DNA of 10,257 bases from a virus (IMGVR_UViG_2547132272_000016:1-10257), one strand, 5' to 3'; positions 1,073 to 10,209 are shown, numbered from the stretch's first letter. Program-made: numbers and translations. The notes: generated by a model from the letters alone, not told the origin.

Positions 1073-1184
1073 TTTACGGGATTTTTAAATCCCGCTTTCG
1101 CCTGTTTTGTGCGCACTTCATGTTTTATGGCGCGTTTTTTGCTCATTTACGGGATTTGTGAATCCCGTTTCTGTCTGTTTTTTG
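1073..1184. repeat. Two ~39-bp direct repeats 73 bp apart, each with an 18-bp palindrome (CGGGATTT-nn-AAATCCCG); candidate parC-like centromere/operator or replication-origin element
   Basis: Repeat 1 (1073-1111, palindrome 1077-1094) lies in the 76-bp gap between the A stop and the parM start, overlapping the likely parM promoter. Repeat 2 (1146-1184, palindrome 1150-1167) lies inside the last codons of gene A. About 80% identity between the copies. Confidence 0.45.
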
Positions 1185-3925
1185 TTTCCACTGGTCAGGC
1201 CACCCCGCAGCAGGTCTGCTTTGCGGTGGGCGCGTTCAGTGGTTTCACTGATTCTTTGTGCATGCTCTGCGTCACGGATGGCGCGCAGCATGTCAGAAAG
1301 CACGGTAACGGGTGTTTTCATGGTGTTCTGGTCTTGCTGAAGTGTGGATGCCAGGCGTGCGGCGGCTTCGGGGTCTGATGCCCCCAGCTGTTCCAGATAG
1401 CTGGCGACCGGGTTATGACGGATCTCCGTGCTGCTTACGCCGTGATTGCGGCTCAGGCGCTGCCAGAGCTGCGTGATTCGGCTGTCCGGGCGGGTATCCG
1501 GTTTGCGTACAATTTCAAATCCCTGCGGTGCAATGATGCTGCCGTCAACGTACAGGCTGCCGCCCCGTAACAGGTGCTGCATCTGCTGTTCACCGATATG
1601 CAGGCCGAGAGATTCGGCAGACTCCCGCCATTCTTTAGCGAGTAATTCGTGGTTATCAGGCAAAGGCCGCTGCTGTTTGCGGCTCTGTGTCCAGCTCTGC
1701 ATTTCATCACTGCTGTTTTTTGCCTGTTTGTCACGCAGCGAACGCATCAGCGCCCGGCGTTCGTGCCGTTTCAGTGAGCGCATCCATTCGTTCACTTCAA
1801 CGCCGTCAGGGAGCTGCGGCCACGGTGCTGGCCGTTCTTCCGGCTGTTCTGTCCCGTTGTTGTCCGTTTCCTGTACACGGGGACAGTTATTGCCACGAGT
1901 CCAAGGGGCGGCAGGGCCGCCCTGAAGGTCAAAACCATTTTCGCGGGCGCTGTCTTCCGCTTCCGGTTTGCGTCTTACCAGCTTCCAGTTATCCGGATGC
2001 GTGCATACGCGGGAAGACTCCCCAATGAGCGGCGACCAGATCCCGTAAATCTGTACGCTCTGTTCACCGTAATCGTTCAGCTCATCTGCGAGGTCGTAGG
2101 CGGTGCGAATCAGGTAGTCCTTGCGTGGAACAAGCACGCCACCCTGTTTTTCAATGTAGGTGGCAAAACACCCGGCATCGGCGGCAGCGAGTACCGCATC
2201 CATTGCATCATCTTTCAGCCGTTGCGGGCCTTCCGGATTGCGTGCCATCTGGCTGGCAAGGCGGCGCAGTTCACGCCACACCTGACGGGAGGGGATACCA
2301 AAGAACTGGAACTGACGGACCCGGTGAAGGCGCGCCCAGCCGATGGCGCGCTCCACGCTCTCGGCCATTGATTTTCCGGTTTCGTGGTCAACGCGTGGCT
2401 TGCCCGTTTTCGGGTCGATGCCATCCACGGCGCGGCTGTCCAGGTTCTTTCCGATGTAGGTAGCGATGTAGCTGGTTGGTGTGCCTTTTGAGCCGTCGAC
2501 ATACTCCGCCTTAAAGCGCGGAGTAATATCATTGCCCAGCTCGTGGCGGTCCTCCTGAATGGCAATATCGCAGACGTGGGACACGATGGTTTCAATCTCG
2601 TCCGGATGTGCAAAGACCATCATATGCCAGTGCACGGTGCCGTCATGGTGAGGCTCCACCGTGCGGATGCCATACCAGCGCAGGCCGTCGCGGTTCAGTT
2701 TTTTGCGGACCGCCGCAAAAAACGTGTTAACCAGGTAATCGCTGGAGTCGCGCATGGTGGCCCCGTTCCATTTGGGGTTCGGATGACCGTTCTCCGTTGT
2801 TGCGTGGTATTTTGACGGGCAGGTGACGGTCAGAAACACCGCTCTGTCGCCACGGGCTTCGGCCAGAAGTTCCAGTCCCTTCATGGTGGCCATCATTTCT
2901 GCCTTACGGTGAACCGGGTTACTTACTCCCGCGTAATACACCGTCTCGAGATCAATCGTGAACCCGTCTTCATTTTCCAGCATGAAACTTTTCAGGAAAT
3001 CGCGTGTTTTCTCGCGCTGTGCGCGAAACTCGCTTAACGCATCCTGGCTCAGATAGGGTGATGTTTTTCTGGAAACCAGACAGGCGGCGCGGAGTTGTTC
3101 TTCTCTCCACTCGCAACGTAACAGCCACAGTTTGCGTTTCCACCAGTCCGCACAGGTCAGGCGGAGGATTGCGCCCGGTAACAGTTCCGTATTCGGATCG
3201 CTCTTGTTCAGGGCTTCGTAATGTGGCGGCATGATGTGCAGGCATAATGCGATACGGGCTAGCATCCGGTAAGCCTTCAACATTACATCCATGGTCAGCT
3301 CGCCATCTCTGGCACCAAAGCCATCGCAGAGTGTTTCAAAGGTGCTGCTGAACATCGCCGCCGTCATGGTGGCCAGCGTCTGTATCTGGTGCTTGTTGAG
3401 CTGCGGCAGGTAAAGCAAATCGTCCAGGCGTTCTCGCCCGGCAAGGGAGCGATAACCCGGTGTCAGCCAGCGTCCGTCAGTGCGATCCAGACGTTCGAAT
3501 ATTTTGCGCAGGGTTCCGCGTGCATAGCGTTCCGCCTGCCAGCTCTTTTTGCCTTTCTGGCGATCGGCTTCCTGTTTTTTGCGCAGGAAGGAGAGGTGGC
3601 GAATAAGCGGATCGCGCAGATAGGATGGCAGCAGGCGCAGCGAGGCCATGGCTTCATCCACCGCGCCGCGTGCCTGTTTTCTGGCTTCTCTGGCCAGTGT
3701 GATGGTTTTGTCCTGTTTTTCCTGTGCGTCCAGGCTTTTATTAATCAGGTTGCCCAGCGGTGTGGCGGAGAACGCCGCATCAGCCATTTCCTGGCGGCGT
3801 TCGTTCTCTGCCCGGTAGGCATCCAGCCAGGAGGAAAGTGCGGATTCAGGTGCGGGGATCTCCGTTCCTTCACGTCCTACTGCGTGGCGCGGTTGTTGCC
3901 AGTCCCTGATGTACTCTGTCGTCAT
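1118..3925 (-). CDS. A: P2 gpA-family rolling-circle replication initiator (HUH endonuclease)
   Basis: 935-aa ORF with an HUH motif (VHWHMMVF) followed by a paired-tyrosine YxxxY motif (TSYIATYIGK), the arrangement recalled for P2 gpA and phiX174 gpA. Sits as the last large gene of the early operon, as in P2. An R/E/Q-rich C-terminal ~300 aa makes it longer than P2 gpA (761 aa). Confidence 0.85.
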   Translation of the reverse strand: MTTEYIRDWQQPRHAVGREGTEIPAPESALSSWLDAYRAENERRQEMADAAFSATPLGNLINKSLDAQEKQDKTITLAREARKQARGAVDEAMASLRLLPSYLRDPLIRHLSFLRKKQEADRQKGKKSWQAERYARGTLRKIFERLDRTDGRWLTPGYRSLAGRERLDDLLYLPQLNKHQIQTLATMTAAMFSSTFETLCDGFGARDGELTMDVMLKAYRMLARIALCLHIMPPHYEALNKSDPNTELLPGAILRLTCADWWKRKLWLLRCEWREEQLRAACLVSRKTSPYLSQDALSEFRAQREKTRDFLKSFMLENEDGFTIDLETVYYAGVSNPVHRKAEMMATMKGLELLAEARGDRAVFLTVTCPSKYHATTENGHPNPKWNGATMRDSSDYLVNTFFAAVRKKLNRDGLRWYGIRTVEPHHDGTVHWHMMVFAHPDEIETIVSHVCDIAIQEDRHELGNDITPRFKAEYVDGSKGTPTSYIATYIGKNLDSRAVDGIDPKTGKPRVDHETGKSMAESVERAIGWARLHRVRQFQFFGIPSRQVWRELRRLASQMARNPEGPQRLKDDAMDAVLAAADAGCFATYIEKQGGVLVPRKDYLIRTAYDLADELNDYGEQSVQIYGIWSPLIGESSRVCTHPDNWKLVRRKPEAEDSARENGFDLQGGPAAPWTRGNNCPRVQETDNNGTEQPEERPAPWPQLPDGVEVNEWMRSLKRHERRALMRSLRDKQAKNSSDEMQSWTQSRKQQRPLPDNHELLAKEWRESAESLGLHIGEQQMQHLLRGGSLYVDGSIIAPQGFEIVRKPDTRPDSRITQLWQRLSRNHGVSSTEIRHNPVASYLEQLGASDPEAAARLASTLQQDQNTMKTPVTVLSDMLRAIRDAEHAQRISETTERAHRKADLLRGGLTSGNKKQTETGFTNPVNEQKTRHKT

Positions 3926-3931
3926 ACTGAT

Positions 3932-4297
3932 TTACTTCGTCATGCCATTCAGAGTGTCACGGCAAACGGCAGCCAGCCGCTGAATCTCCAGCACAGTGTC
4001 TTCTGTGTCGGCATGGTGGTGTGTGATGCGGATACTGTCGGCAATCACATCGACGATCGCAGAGGATGGGCGCTGGTAAATGCCAATAACGGACGGGGTG
4101 CCGCCTTCAATGCGGTAAAGCCTGTAATTTCCCTCGTGGCTGTCAATCATGTAGCGACCATCAATAACAATCTTTCCGTCAGCGAGCTGCGGTACAGGCA
4201 GGGATTTCAGGTACATGTCATAACGGTCACGCACGCGAACGGCAAGATCACGCTCTGTGTTGAGCAGGTATTCAAGAAAGTCGTTGGCGAGAATCAT
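3932..4297 (-). CDS. Hypothetical early-operon protein (121 aa)
   Basis: C-terminal 121 codons of the 326-aa track ORF. Internal ATG at 4297 has an AAGAGGA Shine-Dalgarno 8 nt upstream and protein-like composition from there on; the stop lies 6 nt before the gene A start. The upstream 205 codons are S/T/P-rich and look non-coding. Confidence 0.55.
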   Translation of the reverse strand: MILANDFLEYLLNTERDLAVRVRDRYDMYLKSLPVPQLADGKIVIDGRYMIDSHEGNYRLYRIEGGTPSVIGIYQRPSSAIVDVIADSIRITHHHADTEDTVLEIQRLAAVCRDTLNGMTK

Positions 4298-4370
4298 TGC
4301 GGCAATCCTCTTTACTACAGATGTGCGAAGGCCTCCCGCCGCAAGGTGCAGGAAAGGCCCGGAACAGGAA

Positions 4371-4601
4371 TTAATGGAGTTTGTTTTGCTGCTGGATGAG
4401 ATCCTGAAGAGACAGGAGGTCTTCCGCCAGATAGCTGAATACAGCGGCGCAGTAGTCGGCTGAAATAGTGCTGTTGAGTCTGTGCAATGTGTTGGATTGC
4501 ATGATAAAGGCGATGTGTGCAGCGCGGGTGAGTCTGCGGTCGATTTCAGTCTGGATGTGACGACGCTCTGCGATAGCGCGGTGCTGTTTGCGGTTTGCCA
4601 T
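4371..4601 (-). CDS. Hypothetical small basic protein (76 aa)
   Basis: ATG with AAGAGG Shine-Dalgarno 8 nt upstream; charged N-terminus (MANRKQHRAIAERRH..). No family recognised. Confidence 0.55.
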   Translation of the reverse strand: MANRKQHRAIAERRHIQTEIDRRLTRAAHIAFIMQSNTLHRLNSTISADYCAAVFSYLAEDLLSLQDLIQQQNKLH

Positions 4602-4692
4602 GGTGTGGCCTCTTTGGTTGTAAGTTTTGAAAACTCACCATCCAGAGGTGGAAAACTCGGGGTGGTGAGACGTACAGGGTTTCCACAACCGG

Positions 4693-4716
4693 CAACCAAA
4701 GAACCCGGCCCGACCG
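4693..4716 (-). other. Stable hairpin with a UUCG tetraloop on the transcribed (-) strand, in a 322-bp non-coding gap
   Basis: Minus-strand RNA GGGGCCGAC-UUCG-GUCGGGCCGGG followed by UUCUUUGGUUG. Could be an attenuator, processing site or terminator. Confidence 0.3.
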
Positions 4717-4778
4717 AAGTCGGCCCCATACGCCCCACCATAATTCGTGTGCGAAAAAGACGTGGCGATACGGTACGC

Positions 4779-4801
4779 ACAAAAAAACCGCTGGCGCGGT
4801 T
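4779..4801 (-). terminator. Candidate rho-independent terminator or attenuator on the - strand
   Basis: Minus strand reads ACCGC-GCCA-GCGGT followed by TTTTTTTGTG, about 125 nt downstream of the 99-aa gene stop. The stem is short (4-5 bp), so this is weak. Confidence 0.3.
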
Positions 4802-4923
4802 GTGCGCTTTGGTTGTCAGCGGGGTGGAAATCCCGGCACCCGTTTTATGAGGTGCAGCGGAAATGTAACCTGACTGATTGCGGCATGGCAAGCGGTTTTT
4901 TTGTGTGTGCATGTTCTGGTTTC

Positions 4924-5486: not shown

Positions 5487-5686
5487 CTGCGTGGCTCCTG
5501 TACTTGTCGGATAAGATTCACCCGCGCCACGTTGGTGGCGCAGAAATAAGTGCCGTCAGTGAGGTAGATGTGGTGCGCATCCTTTTCCGAACGATGTTTG
5601 TCGATAGTGGTAATCAGGCGTTCGTCGACCTCGTATTCACGTCTTCTGGAGGTGAAACGAACGACGGTAAATTGCTTAATTGCCAT
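5483..5686 (-). CDS. Hypothetical small protein (67 aa)
   Basis: ATG with GGGAG-type Shine-Dalgarno; overlaps the upstream gene's stop by 11 nt. Confidence 0.55.
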   Translation of the reverse strand: MAIKQFTVVRFTSRRREYEVDERLITTIDKHRSEKDAHHIYLTDGTYFCATNVARVNLIRQVQEPRR

Positions 5687-6002
5687 TACACTCCCTTGCT
5701 TTATGTCCGTGTTTGAGCTTTTCTATTTCTTCTTTTTGTTCTTTTAATATTCTTATGGCTGTAAAAACATTAAAGCCCATAAAATGTGCTCTGTTCGCTA
5801 GTGGAATGCTGGTACCTTTGTTAGCTATATCATCTTCAATATCAGTGAAATACTGACGTATTTCTTCTAGCGCGGCGCAGAGTTTTGTGAGATCTCGCCC
5901 TACATCATAATACGCAGTCCTTAGTATTTCTTGATTTGTCCTGAGCATGCTAACCTCATGTTTATATATGCGGATACCTCCGCGAGTGCGGATTGTTTTC
6001 AT
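5676..6002 (-). CDS. Hypothetical protein in an AT-rich segment (108 aa)
   Basis: ORF in a visibly lower-GC stretch (about 5700-6060) than the flanking genes; weak Shine-Dalgarno. Looks like an acquired insert within the operon. Confidence 0.45.
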   Translation of the reverse strand: MKTIRTRGGIRIYKHEVSMLRTNQEILRTAYYDVGRDLTKLCAALEEIRQYFTDIEDDIANKGTSIPLANRAHFMGFNVFTAIRILKEQKEEIEKLKHGHKARECNGN

Positions 6003-6037
6003 GTTTTCTTATTTAATCTGGTGTTTTGTTTGTGCAG

Positions 6038-6151
6038 TTATTCGTCAGAGAAAAAACGCTCAATCTTTTTCACTGAATGAATAATTCGCATAATGCCAAT
6101 GGTGCAGACCACCGAAATAATCAGAATAAGCCATGACATAAATATACTCAT
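6038..6151 (-). CDS. 37-aa hydrophobic single-pass membrane peptide, not in the supplied ORF track
   Basis: Minus-strand ATG at 6151 with GGGGAA Shine-Dalgarno 7 nt upstream, overlapping the upstream gene's stop in an ATGA. Translation: MSIFMSWLILIISVVCTIGIMRIIHSVKKIERFFSDE, a ~20-residue hydrophobic core then a basic tail. The track's 6060-6263 ORF is in a different frame. Confidence 0.45.
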   Translation of the reverse strand: MSIFMSWLILIISVVCTIGIMRIIHSVKKIERFFSDE

Positions 6152-6390
6152 GCGATATTCCCCAGTTTATATGGTTCAATGCGAACCCCGTATTCTGTGT
6201 CCCGGACAAGTTCGGAAAGCTCGTTAATCGCATCCAAATCGTCAGCGTAAAAGGCCACGTCATAAAGGCTTCTGATTGCCCTTGCTAATGAATCATAGGC
6301 CGCGTGTTCTGCCTGGACTCCTGATGTGTTTAAGCGAAAATGAAAACGCTCAAGTGCTTTATTGACGAGAGTCTTGTATTCCTGGTCCAT
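6148..6390 (-). CDS. Hypothetical acidic small protein (80 aa)
   Basis: ATG with AAGGG Shine-Dalgarno; tightly spaced with neighbouring genes. Confidence 0.55.
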   Translation of the reverse strand: MDQEYKTLVNKALERFHFRLNTSGVQAEHAAYDSLARAIRSLYDVAFYADDLDAINELSELVRDTEYGVRIEPYKLGNIA

Positions 6391-6401
6391 TGCAACGCCC
6401 T

Positions 6402-6680
6402 TTAATCTGCCTTATGGGTTTCAGCTTCTGAATCCATACAAATAATTTCGATATAGGGTTCATCGCCATTAACCTGACGTGCCTTTTCAGCTTCGCTAAT
6501 GATTTCTCGTACGGTCTGATACGGAAGCTCCACAGTCAGGCGCGTACCGTTCAGATAAACGTAAGTAGCTGCGTTTTTTTCGGATGGAACAACTCCGTCA
6601 ATGGCTGATGCGCGTAATAACAGTTCACCGCGAAAATCAATAAAACGGATAAATACACTTTGTGCATGGTCTTTGGTCAT
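6402..6680 (-). CDS. Hypothetical protein (92 aa)
   Basis: ATG with AGGTGA Shine-Dalgarno; 10-nt gap to the upstream gene. Confidence 0.55.
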   Translation of the reverse strand: MTKDHAQSVFIRFIDFRGELLLRASAIDGVVPSEKNAATYVYLNGTRLTVELPYQTVREIISEAEKARQVNGDEPYIEIICMDSEAETHKAD

Positions 6681-6690
6681 AAATCACCTG

Positions 6691-7041
6691 TTATAAATCA
6701 GCTTGTTTAATGAAATTCTGTCCGCGCAGCAGACGATCAACCGTGCGCAGAGCTTCGTACAACGTGAAATCCTGTCCAAACTGATTGTCGCCGTTGCTCA
6801 GAGCAAAAATGCGGTTTCCGGTAAATGGGTTGCGTTGGCATCTGTGAACCACGATTCCAGCTTTCTCAATTAGCCAGGTGTGTTCACCAATTTGTTTTAC
6901 GGGATGGCCATCAGGTGTGGCGTGTGTTTCGCTCAGGCTGTAGCGAGAGCTGCTGCGTGATGCACTGGTGGCGAAACGGTTAGCGTGGCGTTCCGCCCCG
7001 TTGCGGAAGCGTTGCTGTGAAGAATTTCGTTGTTGCTTCAT
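6691..7041 (-). CDS. Hypothetical protein (116 aa; start uncertain, alternative ATG at 7089)
   Basis: ATG at 7041 is preceded by AGGA; the ORF's first ATG at 7089 has no Shine-Dalgarno. Basic S/R-rich N-terminus then a globular-looking C-terminus. Confidence 0.5.
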   Translation of the reverse strand: MKQQRNSSQQRFRNGAERHANRFATSASRSSSRYSLSETHATPDGHPVKQIGEHTWLIEKAGIVVHRCQRNPFTGNRIFALSNGDNQFGQDFTLYEALRTVDRLLRGQNFIKQADL

Positions 7042-7085
7042 ACAAAAATATCCTGCTGCTGTTGCGAATTTGTGCCGGGTTTTAG

Positions 7086-7117
7086 CCATGCCCGGCGCAT
7101 GGTTTTGTGGTATTTTT
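7086..7117 (+). terminator. Candidate + strand hairpin with U-tract (terminator or attenuator) upstream of the + strand accessory gene
   Basis: CCATGC-CCGGC-GCATGG stem-loop (7086-7102) followed by TTTTGTGGTATTTTT. An overlapping alternative stem GCCGGG-N11-CCCGGC (7074-7096) could compete with it. Confidence 0.25.
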
Positions 7118-7182
7118 CCACCGCCCGCAGTCTTGAAGGGGCTGTAAAGGGCGCGTGTTTAACCAACCACAAAGGAGTTGTT

Positions 7183-7650
7183 ATGGAATTAGATGCTTTT
7201 GTGTGTCTGCGAATTTTTGAAAAACACTGCGAGCGAGTTGCTGAATCCTATCGTGATGTGCTGGATAAAGAAACAGCCAACTCAGCATTTGTTGCTACTC
7301 GAGCATTAATTCTCCTTAAATTGGATTTGCTACTTGTCGAGTATCGAAGAAATATTGATTCCAAGTGTGTAGTCCTCTTCGGAAAAAATGTGCTTTATCA
7401 TTATCTTTTCACCCAAAAGGGTGTTTCATTGTCTGATGCCAAAAATATGTGTCTCCATGACATACTTATTGTTCTCTGGAATGATATTAATGCATATGTA
7501 ATACCAGAGCATGTATCCGAGCGTATCCAGATTCTTTATAAGCACGAGCTCTCATCTCCAATGCCTGATTTAAGTTATGAAGATGAAAGTCTGTTGCACT
7601 TTAAGGATTCTGCTTGGGATTTTTATCCTGCCGATACACGACTGAATTAA
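7183..7650 (+). CDS. Accessory protein of unknown function (155 aa), opposite strand to the early operon, low GC
   Basis: ATG at 7183 with AAGGAG Shine-Dalgarno 6 nt upstream (the track ORF extends upstream only via a TTG). AT-rich codon usage unlike the flanking phage genes. Its 3' end overlaps the convergent 202-aa gene by about 47 nt. Confidence 0.6.
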   Translation: MELDAFVCLRIFEKHCERVAESYRDVLDKETANSAFVATRALILLKLDLLLVEYRRNIDSKCVVLFGKNVLYHYLFTQKGVSLSDAKNMCLHDILIVLWNDINAYVIPEHVSERIQILYKHELSSPMPDLSYEDESLLHFKDSAWDFYPADTRLN

Positions 7651-8209
7651 GAAACTCATTGTTTCTATCTATTTCAGCCTGGTAGGCCTCTAACTCATGC
7701 CGTAATTGTTGTTGTCTTAGTGGTAACCTGTTGCGGCATTTCAATTCTGCTACAACGGTTTCCAAAAAATTTATCAGTTCTTCATCAGTGTATGAGCCAG
7801 CATAAATGTACGGTTTAGTGTTAGCGCATGTACAGTCTGCTGTTTCTTTAATGAGCATTGATTCGTCATCCATAATCTGTCGATAAAGTTCAAATGCTTC
7901 TTCGGCAGGAAACCTGAGCATGACGCCGCATACTGGTTCTAAAACCAATCCGAACGTTCCCTTTGCGTTATCCCGACAAAAATGGCCGTATTCATCGTCG
8001 GGATGCAGGGTGGCATCTTTCAAATCTTCGCCATTCTGAAGCTTTGATTTAAATGCCATCAGGTCAGCGAACGTTCTGTGTAATTCGTGGTAGTCAATGC
8101 TGATTTCAACCTGTGGTTTGCCCGGAAAAACCAGCAAAAGCTTCTGGTGTGGTTTTTCGTTTTTCAGGGTTTCCAGTCGTTCCAGTAGCGCTTTATTTTT
8201 GTGATTCAT
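7601..8209 (-). CDS. Hypothetical protein (202 aa), second gene of the leftward early transcript, low GC
   Basis: ATG with AAGAGG Shine-Dalgarno about 10 nt upstream. No family recognised. Its 3' end overlaps the + strand 155-aa gene. Confidence 0.6.
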   Translation of the reverse strand: MNHKNKALLERLETLKNEKPHQKLLLVFPGKPQVEISIDYHELHRTFADLMAFKSKLQNGEDLKDATLHPDDEYGHFCRDNAKGTFGLVLEPVCGVMLRFPAEEAFELYRQIMDDESMLIKETADCTCANTKPYIYAGSYTDEELINFLETVVAELKCRNRLPLRQQQLRHELEAYQAEIDRNNEFLNSVVYRQDKNPKQNP

Positions 8210-8313
8210 TCTACTGTTACCTCTTTTAACTCATTCAGGCAGTGTGATATAGCCCACTAACTGCCCGTGTTTGAAATAACGGCGACGAAAATAATGTGTT
8301 AACAATAAAGCAA

Positions 8314-8739
8314 TCATGCGGCCCTCGCTTTTTTAGTTCTGCTTCGTTTGCTATGTGTCGGCTTAAATAAAAACAGGCGGTTTTCCCAGTCATGCCATTC
8401 CTGCGGAGCGTTTTCGATCAAGCGATCACATGCTTCATCCCACGCTTTTCTGTTGATGTAGAGTTCAGCGTTTCCTCCTGGCCTAAGAGGGTCTGTCATA
8501 TACACGGCTGGCAATTTCCCTGCTTTAGCCATGCTCACAATGGCGCTAACTGTTTTGCCGATATACAGCGCAAATCCTTCTTTTGACAGGAGATGCGAGG
8601 GATTTTCTGAAAGTCGAATTTCTTCACGTTCACGTGCTTTGCGTTCTGTTTTTTGATGCTCCCCTTCTGGCATTTCTGACAGGCGATCGCATCGTGTTCC
8701 GCAAAGTGACTCAGGCGCGTTTTGAGTGCTTTCTTGCAT
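8314..8739 (-). CDS. cox: Cox/Apl-like HTH regulator (excisionase/early-operon repressor type), unusually long
   Basis: First gene leftward of the switch region, the position of P2 cox and 186 apl. Central HTH-like segment GFALYIGKTVSAIVSMAKAGKLPAVYMTDP resembles what I recall of P2 Cox. Start placed at ATG 8739 (GGAGG Shine-Dalgarno 7 nt upstream) rather than the track's GTG at 8778. At 141 aa versus ~90 for P2 Cox it has a charged N-terminal extension; it could alternatively be a CII-type regulator. Confidence 0.55.
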   Translation of the reverse strand: MQESTQNAPESLCGTRCDRLSEMPEGEHQKTERKAREREEIRLSENPSHLLSKEGFALYIGKTVSAIVSMAKAGKLPAVYMTDPLRPGGNAELYINRKAWDEACDRLIENAPQEWHDWENRLFLFKPTHSKRSRTKKARAA

Positions 8740-8812
8740 CTGATATCCTCCGCCATTGGTGCTCTTTCTAATTGGCACTAGTTGGAACCACTTAGAACAT
8801 TTGTTTGCTGTT

Positions 8813-8840
8813 CATATGTGGTGTTAATCTACACATATGT
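8813..8840. promoter_or_regulatory. Candidate repressor operator: CATATGTG-N11-CACATATG (also two direct CATATGT copies 20 bp apart)
   Basis: The two half-sites flank the proposed -10 of the leftward early promoter, analogous to P2 C operators flanking the Pe -10 and 186 CI operators at pR. Confidence 0.4.
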
Positions 8841-8853
8841 AGGAGTTTGTCAA
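8826..8853 (-). promoter_or_regulatory. Candidate early lytic promoter (Pe-like), transcribing leftward toward cox
   Basis: Perfect -35 TTGACA on the - strand (8853-8848), 16-nt spacer, -10 TAGATT (8831-8826). The -35 abuts the C start codon, so the early transcript would be antisense to the C 5' end. Confidence 0.4.
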
Positions 8854-9147
8854 ATGGACATTCCTCAAAAAATTCGCGTCATGCGCAAATCTGAAGATCT
8901 CACTCAGCGGGAATTCGCTGATATGATTGGAATTTCTTATTCTGCTCTGACCAGTTATGAGTATGGTCGTAACCTTCCTGGCCTCGAGATCACTATCAAG
9001 CTTTTCAAGCACCCGAGATTTTCTAAATACCGCGACTGGTTTCTGTTTGATGAAGTTGAACCCAAGGCCGGGCAGGTTGTACCGGCTCTCGCACACATTG
9101 GGCAAGGCGAAGCGGAATCATCCCGCTCCGGCAAGAAAACTGGTTAA
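8854..9147 (+). CDS. C: P2 C-type immunity repressor
   Basis: Start at internal ATG 8854 with AGGAG Shine-Dalgarno 8 nt upstream. The 97-aa product matches recalled P2 C features: KIRVMRKSEDLTQREFADMIGISYSALTSYEYGR and the C-terminal PALAHIGQ...SGKKTG. Lies immediately upstream of int on the same strand, as in P2. Confidence 0.85.
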   Translation: MDIPQKIRVMRKSEDLTQREFADMIGISYSALTSYEYGRNLPGLEITIKLFKHPRFSKYRDWFLFDEVEPKAGQVVPALAHIGQGEAESSRSGKKTG

Positions 9148-9213
9148 CGGTTCACCAGGCATTTATTTCCCAGAGCTGTGATCAAGATGATGTTTTCATT
9201 GGAGGGCTTCCTT

Positions 9214-10209
9214 ATGTCGATTAAGAAGCTCGCTAATGGCAAATTTTGTGTGGACGTGCGGCCTGCTGGATCAGAAGGAAAGAGATTCAGGCGGCGATTT
9301 GATACTCGTGGTGAGGCTGTTTTGTATGAGCGTCATGTATTGCAGCATTACCACGACAAAGACTGGGTTGATAAGCCAACAGAACGGCGCTCGCTGAGGG
9401 AGTTGCTGGATTGTTGGTGGCTATACCATGGGAAAAACCATCCTTACGGTGCGATGGAGCGAGTGCGTATTTCTGCGGTCATTAGTGATCTTGAAAGTAT
9501 TAATGTTACACGCAGTGACCAACTTACTCGTAAGAACATAATTAATTATCGGTTATTGTTGCTTAACCGCGGAATAAAACAATCCACGGTTAATCGTTAT
9601 TGCGCAATGATGAGTGGTTTCTTCACAAAACTAATTGACGCAGAGGAATATTCTGGGGTTAATCCGTTTCATGATGTGAAAAAACTTAATATCAAACAGC
9701 CTGAAATGGCTTATTTGTATCATGAAGATATTCCACGATTACTGGAGTTGTTATCTGGTGATGAATTAAAAGCCGTCTTGTTGTGTCTGGCAACAGGTGG
9801 AAGATGGAGTGAAGTTGCAAATATCAAGGGGGAGCATGTTATTAGCGGCAAAGTCATTTTTATGGAAACAAAAAATGGGAAGCGTCGCGTTATACCTATA
9901 TCGTCAGAACTGGAGTGCATGATTAAGACTAAGGCTACTGGTCGTTTAATTTATCCGAGTTATGCCGCTGTCAGAACGGCTATCAGAAAAGTGAGGCCCG
10001 ATCTTCCTGAAGGGCAGTCGATACATGTTTTACGGCATACCTTTGCCACTCACTTCATGATTAATGGCGGGAATATCATCACTTTGCAGAGAATACTTGG
10101 GCATAGCACTATTCAGCAGACGATGACTTATGCCCATTTTGCACCGGATTATCTGCAGGATGCTGTGCGCTTTAATCCTGTGGCTGAGTTGTCCAGATAT
10201 TGCCCATAA
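9214..10209 (+). CDS. int: P2-type tyrosine integrase
   Basis: Start at ATG 9214 (MSIKKLANGKF..., compare P2 Int MAIKKL...) with GGAGGG Shine-Dalgarno 7 nt upstream; the track's GTG at 9178 is probably an over-extension. C-terminal catalytic region HVLRHTFATHFMINGGNIITLQRILGHSTIQQTMTYAHFAP carries the conserved R, H-x-x-R and catalytic Y of tyrosine recombinases. Confidence 0.92.
   Translation: MSIKKLANGKFCVDVRPAGSEGKRFRRRFDTRGEAVLYERHVLQHYHDKDWVDKPTERRSLRELLDCWWLYHGKNHPYGAMERVRISAVISDLESINVTRSDQLTRKNIINYRLLLLNRGIKQSTVNRYCAMMSGFFTKLIDAEEYSGVNPFHDVKKLNIKQPEMAYLYHEDIPRLLELLSGDELKAVLLCLATGGRWSEVANIKGEHVISGKVIFMETKNGKRRVIPISSELECMIKTKATGRLIYPSYAAVRTAIRKVRPDLPEGQSIHVLRHTFATHFMINGGNIITLQRILGHSTIQQTMTYAHFAPDYLQDAVRFNPVAELSRYCP

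Follow-up and report, generated by a model that had tools for sequence, protein, structure and literature searches.

The window analysed here (IMGVR_UViG_2547132272_000016:1-10257; 10,257 nucleotides (nt), one strand) covers the immunity and early end of a P88-like prophage (Xuanwuvirus, P2-like). Between its cox and DUF4761 genes lie two convergent, overlapping genes, one of 155 amino acids (aa) on the plus strand, which belongs by profile match to the ECs1072 family, and one of 202 aa on the minus strand, referred to below as the partner. Loci fetched for comparison are denoted by L numbers. The features of the interval are as follows.

7051..8333, both strands: whole insert relative to phage P88, 1.28 kb, low in G+C (blastn breakpoints and P88 annotation)
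7073..7119, plus strand: hairpin and T-run element, TGCCGGG-TTTTAGCCATG-CCCGGCGCATGGTTTTGTGGTATTTTT, ~47 nt, marking the cargo slot
7172..7177, plus strand: Shine-Dalgarno sequence AAGGAG, 5-nt spacer to the ATG of the ECs1072 gene (direct sequence reading)
7177..7873, both strands: exchangeable cassette, comprising the ECs1072 open reading frame (ORF) and the partner C-terminal domain (blastn breakpoints against L004, L062 and L003)
7183..7650, plus strand: ECs1072-family gene, 155 aa, pointing the same way as C and int and thus antisense to the early lytic operon
7601..7650, both strands: convergent 3' overlap, 50 nt including both stop codons, formed by the ECs1072 C-terminus (FKDSAWDFYPADTRLN) and the partner tail (NSVVYRQDKNPKQNP)
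7601..8209, minus strand: partner gene (ORF), 202 aa, two domains, second in the early operon after cox
7601..7843, minus strand: partner C-terminal domain, residues about 123-202, PYIYAGSYTDEELINFLE...NEFLNSVVYRQ..NP, which travels with ECs1072
7844..8209, minus strand: partner N-terminal domain, residues 1 to about 120, about 80% identical to a 135-aa post-cox family

The plus-strand frame is open over 7030-7650, and an internal ATG at 7183 gives the 155-aa product. A preliminary description, made from the sequence alone, had credited this gene with a strong Shine-Dalgarno sequence of its own, which is present; ACCACAAGGA ahead of the start codon is conserved across cargo loci. Against the NCBIfam model NF033230 ("ECs1072 family phage-associated protein") the protein scored 112.6 bits (E = 1.5e-32; curated cut-off 70 bits), residues 8-154 aligning with model positions 3-141 of 142. 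Judged by this score, the gene is a member of a family that is named and already catalogued, without characterisation. A weak match to phrog_5286 was also obtained in the PHROGs scan. The preliminary description had recognised no family for either protein; this stands for the 202-aa protein, which gave no match in Pfam, PHROGs, NCBIfam or PADLOC scans, and fails for the 155-aa protein.

An exhaustive hidden Markov model (HMM) search over 1.84 billion representatives placed the ECs1072 family in 36 clusters at 50% identity, nearly all of about 140-165 aa. In an alignment of 32 representatives the motifs RA..FKLD.LL..YR, GK.AL.HYL and a C-terminal D.EWDP were identified, with W145 invariant and G67 nearly so, and the window protein fits both the motifs and the family size (about 145-160 aa). 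It is acidic (isoelectric point 5.3) and predicted to be all-helical, and Escherichia albertii NBRC 107761 encodes a 100% identical protein within 12.5 kb of one of its contigs. The ratio of non-synonymous to synonymous substitution rates (dN/dS; Nei-Gojobori) of the gene is 0.13-0.5. The possibility of a chance antisense ORF was rejected in view of the match to the family model, the dN/dS and the motif conserved at the C-terminus.

The partner converges on this gene, and the overlap, put earlier at about 47 nt, measures 50 nt when both stop codons are counted. The 202-aa protein belongs to a 97%-identical cluster (P0001) with members from several genomes, and L002, L011, L019 and L025 have the same 202-aa ORF. 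Its C-terminal domain is helical, comprises ~70 aa and has the consensus P.I[FY]AGS.[ST]DEEL..FLE.V...L..R..L...NEF[IL]NS[VI]VYRQ..NP. A profile search recovered this domain in 25 protein clusters (72-203 aa) whose N-termini are unrelated to one another, the forms at fetched loci being of 79 aa (L013/L014), 91 aa (L003), 129 aa (L015), 153 aa (L006/L009) and 202 aa (the window). The domain thus also exists as a stand-alone gene of 79-91 aa; in E. coli CFIAFB20180511 (L003, 4515-4790, minus strand) the ATG of the 91-aa partner, absent from the RefSeq annotation, overlaps the cox stop codon as ATGA. Outside the overlap the dN/dS of the C-domain is 0.14-0.44 (Nei-Gojobori). Based on the family score of the plus-strand gene and the dN/dS of both, the two ORFs are genuine genes under purifying selection.

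The 135-aa family to which the partner N-domain is related occurs next to other cargo genes in E. coli, Salmonella and Yersinia prophages. Its members (L004 4095-4685; L033, L041, L045; window 7844-8209) share one N-domain and differ in the C-terminal tail according to the convergent cargo, be it a 60-aa cargo, a 78-aa cargo or ECs1072, which indicates that cargo and tail are exchanged together. Homology among the partner-type N-terminal extensions, suggested by eye from an F[CR].R...G...G motif, was unsupported, with hhalign probabilities of 1.5-17%.

The direction of the surrounding operon was read from the neighbouring genes and promoter.

1118-3925, minus strand: gpA (PF05840)
6691-7041, minus strand: DUF4761 gene, bordering the insert on its downstream side within the early operon (PF15958, E = 2e-68; 351 nt in the annotation of relatives)
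8314-8778, minus strand: cox (Phage_Cox, PF10743, E = 5e-28), bordering the insert on its upstream side within the early operon
8826-8853, minus strand: Pe-like early promoter, TTGACA-16-TAGATT (consensus scan; layout matching the annotated P2 Pe/Pc switch)
about 8854-9147, plus strand: C-type helix-turn-helix repressor
9178-10209, plus strand: int

The C/Pe region has the same layout as the annotated face-to-face Pe/Pc switch of P2, and the Pe-like promoter at 8853-8826 probably drives cox, the partner and the genes downstream. Since cox, DUF4761, gpA and this promoter all lie on the minus strand, the early lytic operon is on the minus strand, in the order Pe, cox, 202-aa gene, DUF4761, small early ORFs and gpA. 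It follows that the 202-aa gene points the same way as the operon and that the 155-aa gene alone runs against it. The preliminary description had implied the reverse, with the minus-strand gene as the odd one.

The claim that the pair is inserted in the early operon was borne out by comparison with P88, to which homology ends at 7050 and restarts at 8334 (blastn); in P88 the gap between cox and DUF4761 is just 37 nt. The G+C content is 37.8% for the plus-strand gene and 40.4% for the pair; the window as a whole has 50.1%, cox 48% and DUF4761 50.7%. The AT-richness ascribed earlier to the pair is thus real relative to the window and to both flanking genes, but the small early ORFs nearby (5676-6680) also have 41% G+C, so low G+C is not confined to the pair. 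The interval varies between related prophages: near-identical relatives hold unrelated cargos, and the slot is absent from P88. Against the near-identical L004 and L062, which carry a 60-aa cargo and the 135-aa gene, homology stops at 7176 and resumes at 7874, while against L003 it runs through to 7849. Based on these breakpoints the unit of exchange is the ECs1072 ORF together with the partner C-domain, and the cassette takes the place of the 60-aa cargo and a short tail in otherwise near-identical prophages. Where the cassette lies between C and cox, the lytic-direction ORF begins with 9 codons (MVMKHEGR) that come from the backbone, and everything after them is cassette-specific. Among the features expected of a moron, insertion relative to P88 and lower G+C were seen, together with an upstream conserved hairpin and T-run and a possible extended -10 sequence; no promoter passing the scan and no conserved terminator were found.

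The two genes were found together far beyond the window; E. coli E300010, for one, has the same pair. In all intact ECs1072-family loci fetched, the C-domain of a convergent partner overlaps the 3' end of the ECs1072 gene by 50-316 nt (mostly 50 nt in the HMM searches over these loci, with 53 nt in L015 and 77 nt in L029). This co-occurrence, with the convergent 3' overlap retained in every intact locus examined, supports the earlier view that the pair belongs together. The lone exception is a Brenneria prophage locus in which the partner is split by IS21. At this locus (L012 6459-8786, Brenneria rubrifaciens) istA/istB lie inside the partner gene, with an N-terminal remnant on the far side, and the C-terminus of the ECs1072 homologue is altered.

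The pairing extends to remote members of the family. The ECs1072 protein of L047, about 19% identical to that of the window in the family alignment, faces a convergent 188-aa ORF with a 143-nt overlap. The gene that gave the family its name, now designated ECs_5703, belongs to the lambdoid prophage Sp4 of E. coli O157:H7 Sakai, where it is flanked by the cII-like ydaT (YdaT) and replication gene O and runs antisense to the PR operon. BLASTP gives no alignment between the window protein and this namesake, which are about 18% identical in a profile alignment; hhalign to the Sakai gene gave a probability of 98.3%. An unannotated 169-aa ORF (L030 29168-29677, plus strand), absent from the RefSeq annotation, converges on the Sp4 gene with a 316-nt overlap. 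With a partner HMM built only from P2-type sequences, the top matches among 802 six-frame ORFs of L047 and Sp4 (L030) were these convergent neighbours (E = 0.002 and 0.004), the next match having an E of 2.7.

The cassette lies after cox in the window, L002, L003 and L015, between C and cox in L005-L010, L013/L014 and L021-L028, and further downstream, past DUF4761, in L047. In every case the partner is oriented with the lytic operon and ECs1072 with C and int. Of 5426 complete E. coli genomes, 464 carry a Sakai-type ECs1072 locus (mostly O157:H7 among the matches listed) and only 1-2 the window-type pair. As judged from these positions and frequencies, the comparison shows the two genes to be a rare, mobile cassette beside the lysis/lysogeny switch of P2-like prophages and of one lambdoid prophage.

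The element at 7073..7119 is nearly invariant, with 39 sequence variants from 50 distinct P2-like regions (the window and L002-L072). In most regions about 91 nt separate the element from the start codon of the plus-strand cargo that follows it. Its stem GCCGGG/CCCGGC is invariant, the loop length is 10-14 nt, and an alternative stem CCATGC/GCATGG shows one compensatory change; no Rfam match was obtained. At least 8 different cargo ORFs were found behind it, either of the ECs1072 family or unrelated genes of 39, 60, 71, 78, 155 and 159 aa, and several of these cargos have a convergent lytic-direction ORF of their own. The element occurs at three sites (between DUF4761 and cox, between cox and C, and downstream of DUF4761). 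P2 and P88 lack it; the sequenced phages SEN4 and SEN5 have it. It may be a plus-strand terminator followed by a promoter with an extended -10 sequence (TGGTATTTT, TGGTAWTTT). The hairpin-marked slot inside the P2-like early operon is apparently undescribed in the literature searched. Behind the same element at L017 (4001-4640; also at L018) lies a partner-like 174-aa protein with an extra C-terminal extension, convergent on an unrelated 63-aa gene.

Within the overlap, the ECs1072 frame shows a dN/dS of 0-0.5 and the partner frame one of 0.6-4; the substitutions are mostly synonymous for ECs1072 and mostly non-synonymous for the partner, and the nucleotide identity (0.67-0.72) equals that of the ECs1072 core. 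Both measures follow the ECs1072 frame, and the conserved ECs1072 C-terminus therefore explains the overlap sequence. Constraint at the RNA level was accordingly rejected as independent evidence for an RNA function, conservation being no higher than in the ECs1072 core. The mutual antisense regulation proposed in the preliminary description thus comes down to geometry, and the feature that is kept across the loci compared is, on this evidence, the convergent overlapping arrangement rather than an RNA motif.

Searches for function returned little. An AlphaFold2 (AF2) model of the ECs1072 protein (mean predicted local distance difference test score 81) gave no fold match, and neither the model nor the fold search showed a DNA-binding fold. 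The protein has no Pfam family. Neither protein corresponds to a P2/186 core early gene (B, orf78, cII, fil and others), a correspondence named beforehand as the one that would speak against an accessory role: there is no Pfam assignment, and tblastn searches of 50,697 phage records (P2 included) gave nothing at E <= 1e-3 with either protein and no match with the Sakai homologue. The view that no known defence, toxin-antitoxin or Pfam family is represented agrees with the Pfam, PADLOC and profile searches, which returned nothing beyond chance level. In the literature searched the ECs1072 family appears only in one microarray table (PMC2241611).

Convergent-promoter interference is known at pR/pL of phage 186, the lambda oop RNA is antisense to the 3' end of cII, and prophage defences with self-immunity are represented by BstA/aba and SieB/Esc. 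The reading that we tentatively prefer, at a probability of roughly 0.4, is that ECs1072 is a lysogen-expressed accessory protein which is switched off by Pe-driven expression of the partner and by convergent transcription. In the lysogen, C would repress Pe and the partner would not be made, while the ECs1072 gene would be transcribed from its own putative promoter downstream of the hairpin. The acidic helical product would then act as a lysogen accessory factor, most likely excluding or aborting other phages. On induction or infection, the firing of Pe would send RNA polymerases through the cassette against the ECs1072 promoter, and the head-on transcription would cause transcriptional interference and a 50-nt sense/antisense duplex. 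The partner would be made from Pe, and its cassette-specific C-domain would neutralise the leftover ECs1072 protein. The prophage's own lytic cycle would thereby be spared, amounting to a defence with self-immunity. Points in favour are the signs that both genes are real, their linkage across loci, their exchange as a unit in a constant orientation to Pe, and their place in the int-gpA interval. Expression in the lysogen is suggested by a regulated signal of the ECs1072 probe on a microarray of uninduced O157 Sakai, which went down more than four-fold at entry into stationary phase (PMC2241611).

Several observations weigh against this reading. As judged by its substitutions, the overlapping tail of the partner (its last ~16 residues) is a passenger without selection of its own, and no conserved hairpin, terminator or other RNA structure was found 3' of the ECs1072 stop codon across the loci compared. 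A promoter consensus scan of 7051-7182 passed no candidate. In PADLOC-DB v2 the ECs1072 protein gave only a chance-level match (Cas7f, E = 0.008) and the partner none; profiles of both families against Pfam and Protein Data Bank (PDB) sequences returned only coiled-coil noise (NEMO, E about 0.004), and neither protein matches a known fold. The microarray signal concerns the distant namesake, not alignable to the window protein by BLASTP, and may not be strand-specific. Partner-like proteins occur without ECs1072 in L017 and L018. Finally, between the window and L020 the synonymous divergence (dS) is 0.06 for ECs1072 and 0.59 for the partner, so that alleles of the two genes recombine independently among close relatives, which argues against tight co-adaptation of the two proteins. 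Confidence in the reading is limited by these reassorting alleles and by the partner-like proteins without ECs1072 (L017).

The alternative that survives best, possible though somewhat unlikely, is that the cassette is an accessory of the switch itself and tunes the lysis/lysogeny decision of its own phage rather than serving defence. Transcription of ECs1072 would oppose Pe read-through into DUF4761 and gpA and might reach back towards C and int, as with lambda oop/pRE or 186 pE, and the two proteins would be a regulator and an anti-regulator of establishment or induction. The cassette is always near the switch (after cox, between C and cox, or, in L047, a few early genes downstream), it keeps one orientation with respect to the repressor, and no terminator is evident between ECs1072 and C. 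The Sp4 site, between cII (YdaT) and O, is the position of lambda oop, and the 3' overlap with a lytic-operon gene resembles the oop/cII geometry; in a comparison with oop/cII-type control the geometry fitted, but no conserved hairpin or terminator follows the ECs1072 stop codon across loci. Against this alternative, the pair is dispensable and rare, with 1-2 occurrences among the complete E. coli genomes and no such slot in P88. Near-identical prophages hold unrelated cargos at the same place, and the ECs1072 protein is acidic and has no DNA-binding fold.

Quite unlikely, in our judgement, is the absence of any functional pairing, with ECs1072 as a solitary moron, the partner as a mosaic early gene whose 3' end is dragged along by internal breakpoints, and the overlap as an accident of compaction. 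The unselected tail and the reassorting alleles would fit this explanation, as would the unrelated N-termini of the partner types, the partner C-domain facing a different 63-aa convergent gene in L017, and the lytic-direction ORFs that accompany other cargos of the slot. It does not account for the purifying selection on the C-domain outside the overlap (dN/dS 0.14-0.44), nor for its retention beside ECs1072 proteins of about 18-100% identity, at several sites of insertion and in both phage lineages; the C-domain moreover stands alone in the 79-91-aa forms and is ATGA-coupled to cox in L003.

A toxin-antitoxin or addiction module stabilising the prophage, in which one protein is toxic and the other protein or the antisense overlap restrains it, is very unlikely: the pair is a two-gene mobile cassette of low G+C encoding small proteins with no other recognisable function, and some antisense-controlled loci such as par of pAD1 use a convergent 3' overlap, but neither protein matches a toxin-antitoxin family in Pfam, NCBIfam or PADLOC, membrane and nuclease features are lacking, the genes are convergent with different promoters (Pe against the lysogenic direction), so that only one is expected to be expressed in the lysogen, and Brenneria tolerates an IS21-broken partner, though the ECs1072 C-terminus differs there too.

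Compared with known systems, the window protein resembles the NF033230 namesake of Sp4 (O157:H7 Sakai) in length, motifs and antisense position to the early operon beside the immunity region. It differs in belonging to a subfamily of P2-like prophages, BLASTP-unalignable to the namesake and about 18% identical to it; at the namesake loci of O157 genomes the convergent partner was left unannotated. As with lambda oop/cII, 186 pR/pL and the Pe/Pc interference of P2, a unit in the lysogenic direction lies inside a lytic operon with 3' ends overlapping by tens of nucleotides. Unlike oop, the antisense unit here encodes a conserved 155-aa protein, and the gene it overlaps has a cassette-specific domain.

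With SieB-Esc of P22 and lambda the cassette would share a lysogen accessory gene near the immunity region and a phage-encoded sparing of the phage's own lytic cycle. The same likeness would hold for BstA/aba (PMC8585504). No similarity in sequence or fold to either system was found, and the source of self-immunity would be a protein encoded in the lytic operon together with convergent transcription, rather than a DNA element or an internal start. Like P2 old/tin (in the gpA-gpQ hotspot), Z/fun and the other P2/P4 hotspots, the cassette is a low-G+C, variable, non-essential element of a P2-like prophage (PMC9122126, PMC13586616). It differs in lying inside the early operon by cox or C, in carrying cargo unrecognised by PADLOC and in the hairpin marking its slot, a mark that the available portions of these two papers do not mention for the hotspots. 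In PMC13586616, gpA-gpQ, the tail-gene locus and int-att are given as the hotspots of P2; a minor share of defence systems falls somewhere between int and gpA, an interval reported to contain about 8% of the recognisable ones. Three features appear to have no earlier description in the literature searched: a convergent partner that is obligate, an orientation to the switch that stays fixed across two phage lineages, and a cargo slot marked by a hairpin.

If the preferred reading of a lysogen-expressed effector silenced from Pe is right, the cassette would be a compact way for a prophage accessory or defence function to be disarmed automatically by the phage's own lytic promoter, through a cognate protein and head-on transcription. 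The analysis also yields a first testable hypothesis for the NCBIfam ECs1072 family and reveals a partner gene at O157-type loci in which none is annotated. The slot in the early operon differs from the gpA-gpQ and tail-gene hotspots, and among its contents are many small genes unrecognised by current defence-finding tools. A broader proposition, which we regard as speculative and unlikely as it stands, is that the pair is the founding example of "switch-embedded" two-gene cassettes, each consisting of a lysogen-direction effector and a lytic-operon neutraliser coupled by a convergent overlap, in the hairpin-marked P2-like slot and in the lambdoid cII-O interval. The other slot cargos (60, 71, 78, 155 and 159 aa, each with a lytic-direction ORF) would then be undescribed systems that follow the same design, and together they would make up a hitherto unrecognised source of self-immune prophage functions in defence or conversion.

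Some further features of the window were identified outside the insert. The gpA product is of 935 aa, compared with roughly 760 aa for the P2 A gene. Downstream of gpA, an actin-like segregation protein of the ParM/StbA type (PF06406 and PF21523) is encoded at 82-1041 on the minus strand of this integrating P2-like prophage. Between the early ORFs and gpA lie two minus-strand RNA genes, for the C4 antisense RNA (4658-4745; RF01695, 80.5 bits) and the Hfq-binding small RNA isrK (4781-4855; RF01394, 64.3 bits). A 326-aa ORF at 3932-4912 covers both RNAs, and its 5' part is probably spurious. In relatives a "derepression protein" gene adjoins the C4 and isrK RNAs, and the presence of the two RNAs suggests that this P2-like phage has a layer of RNA immunity of the P1/P4 type.

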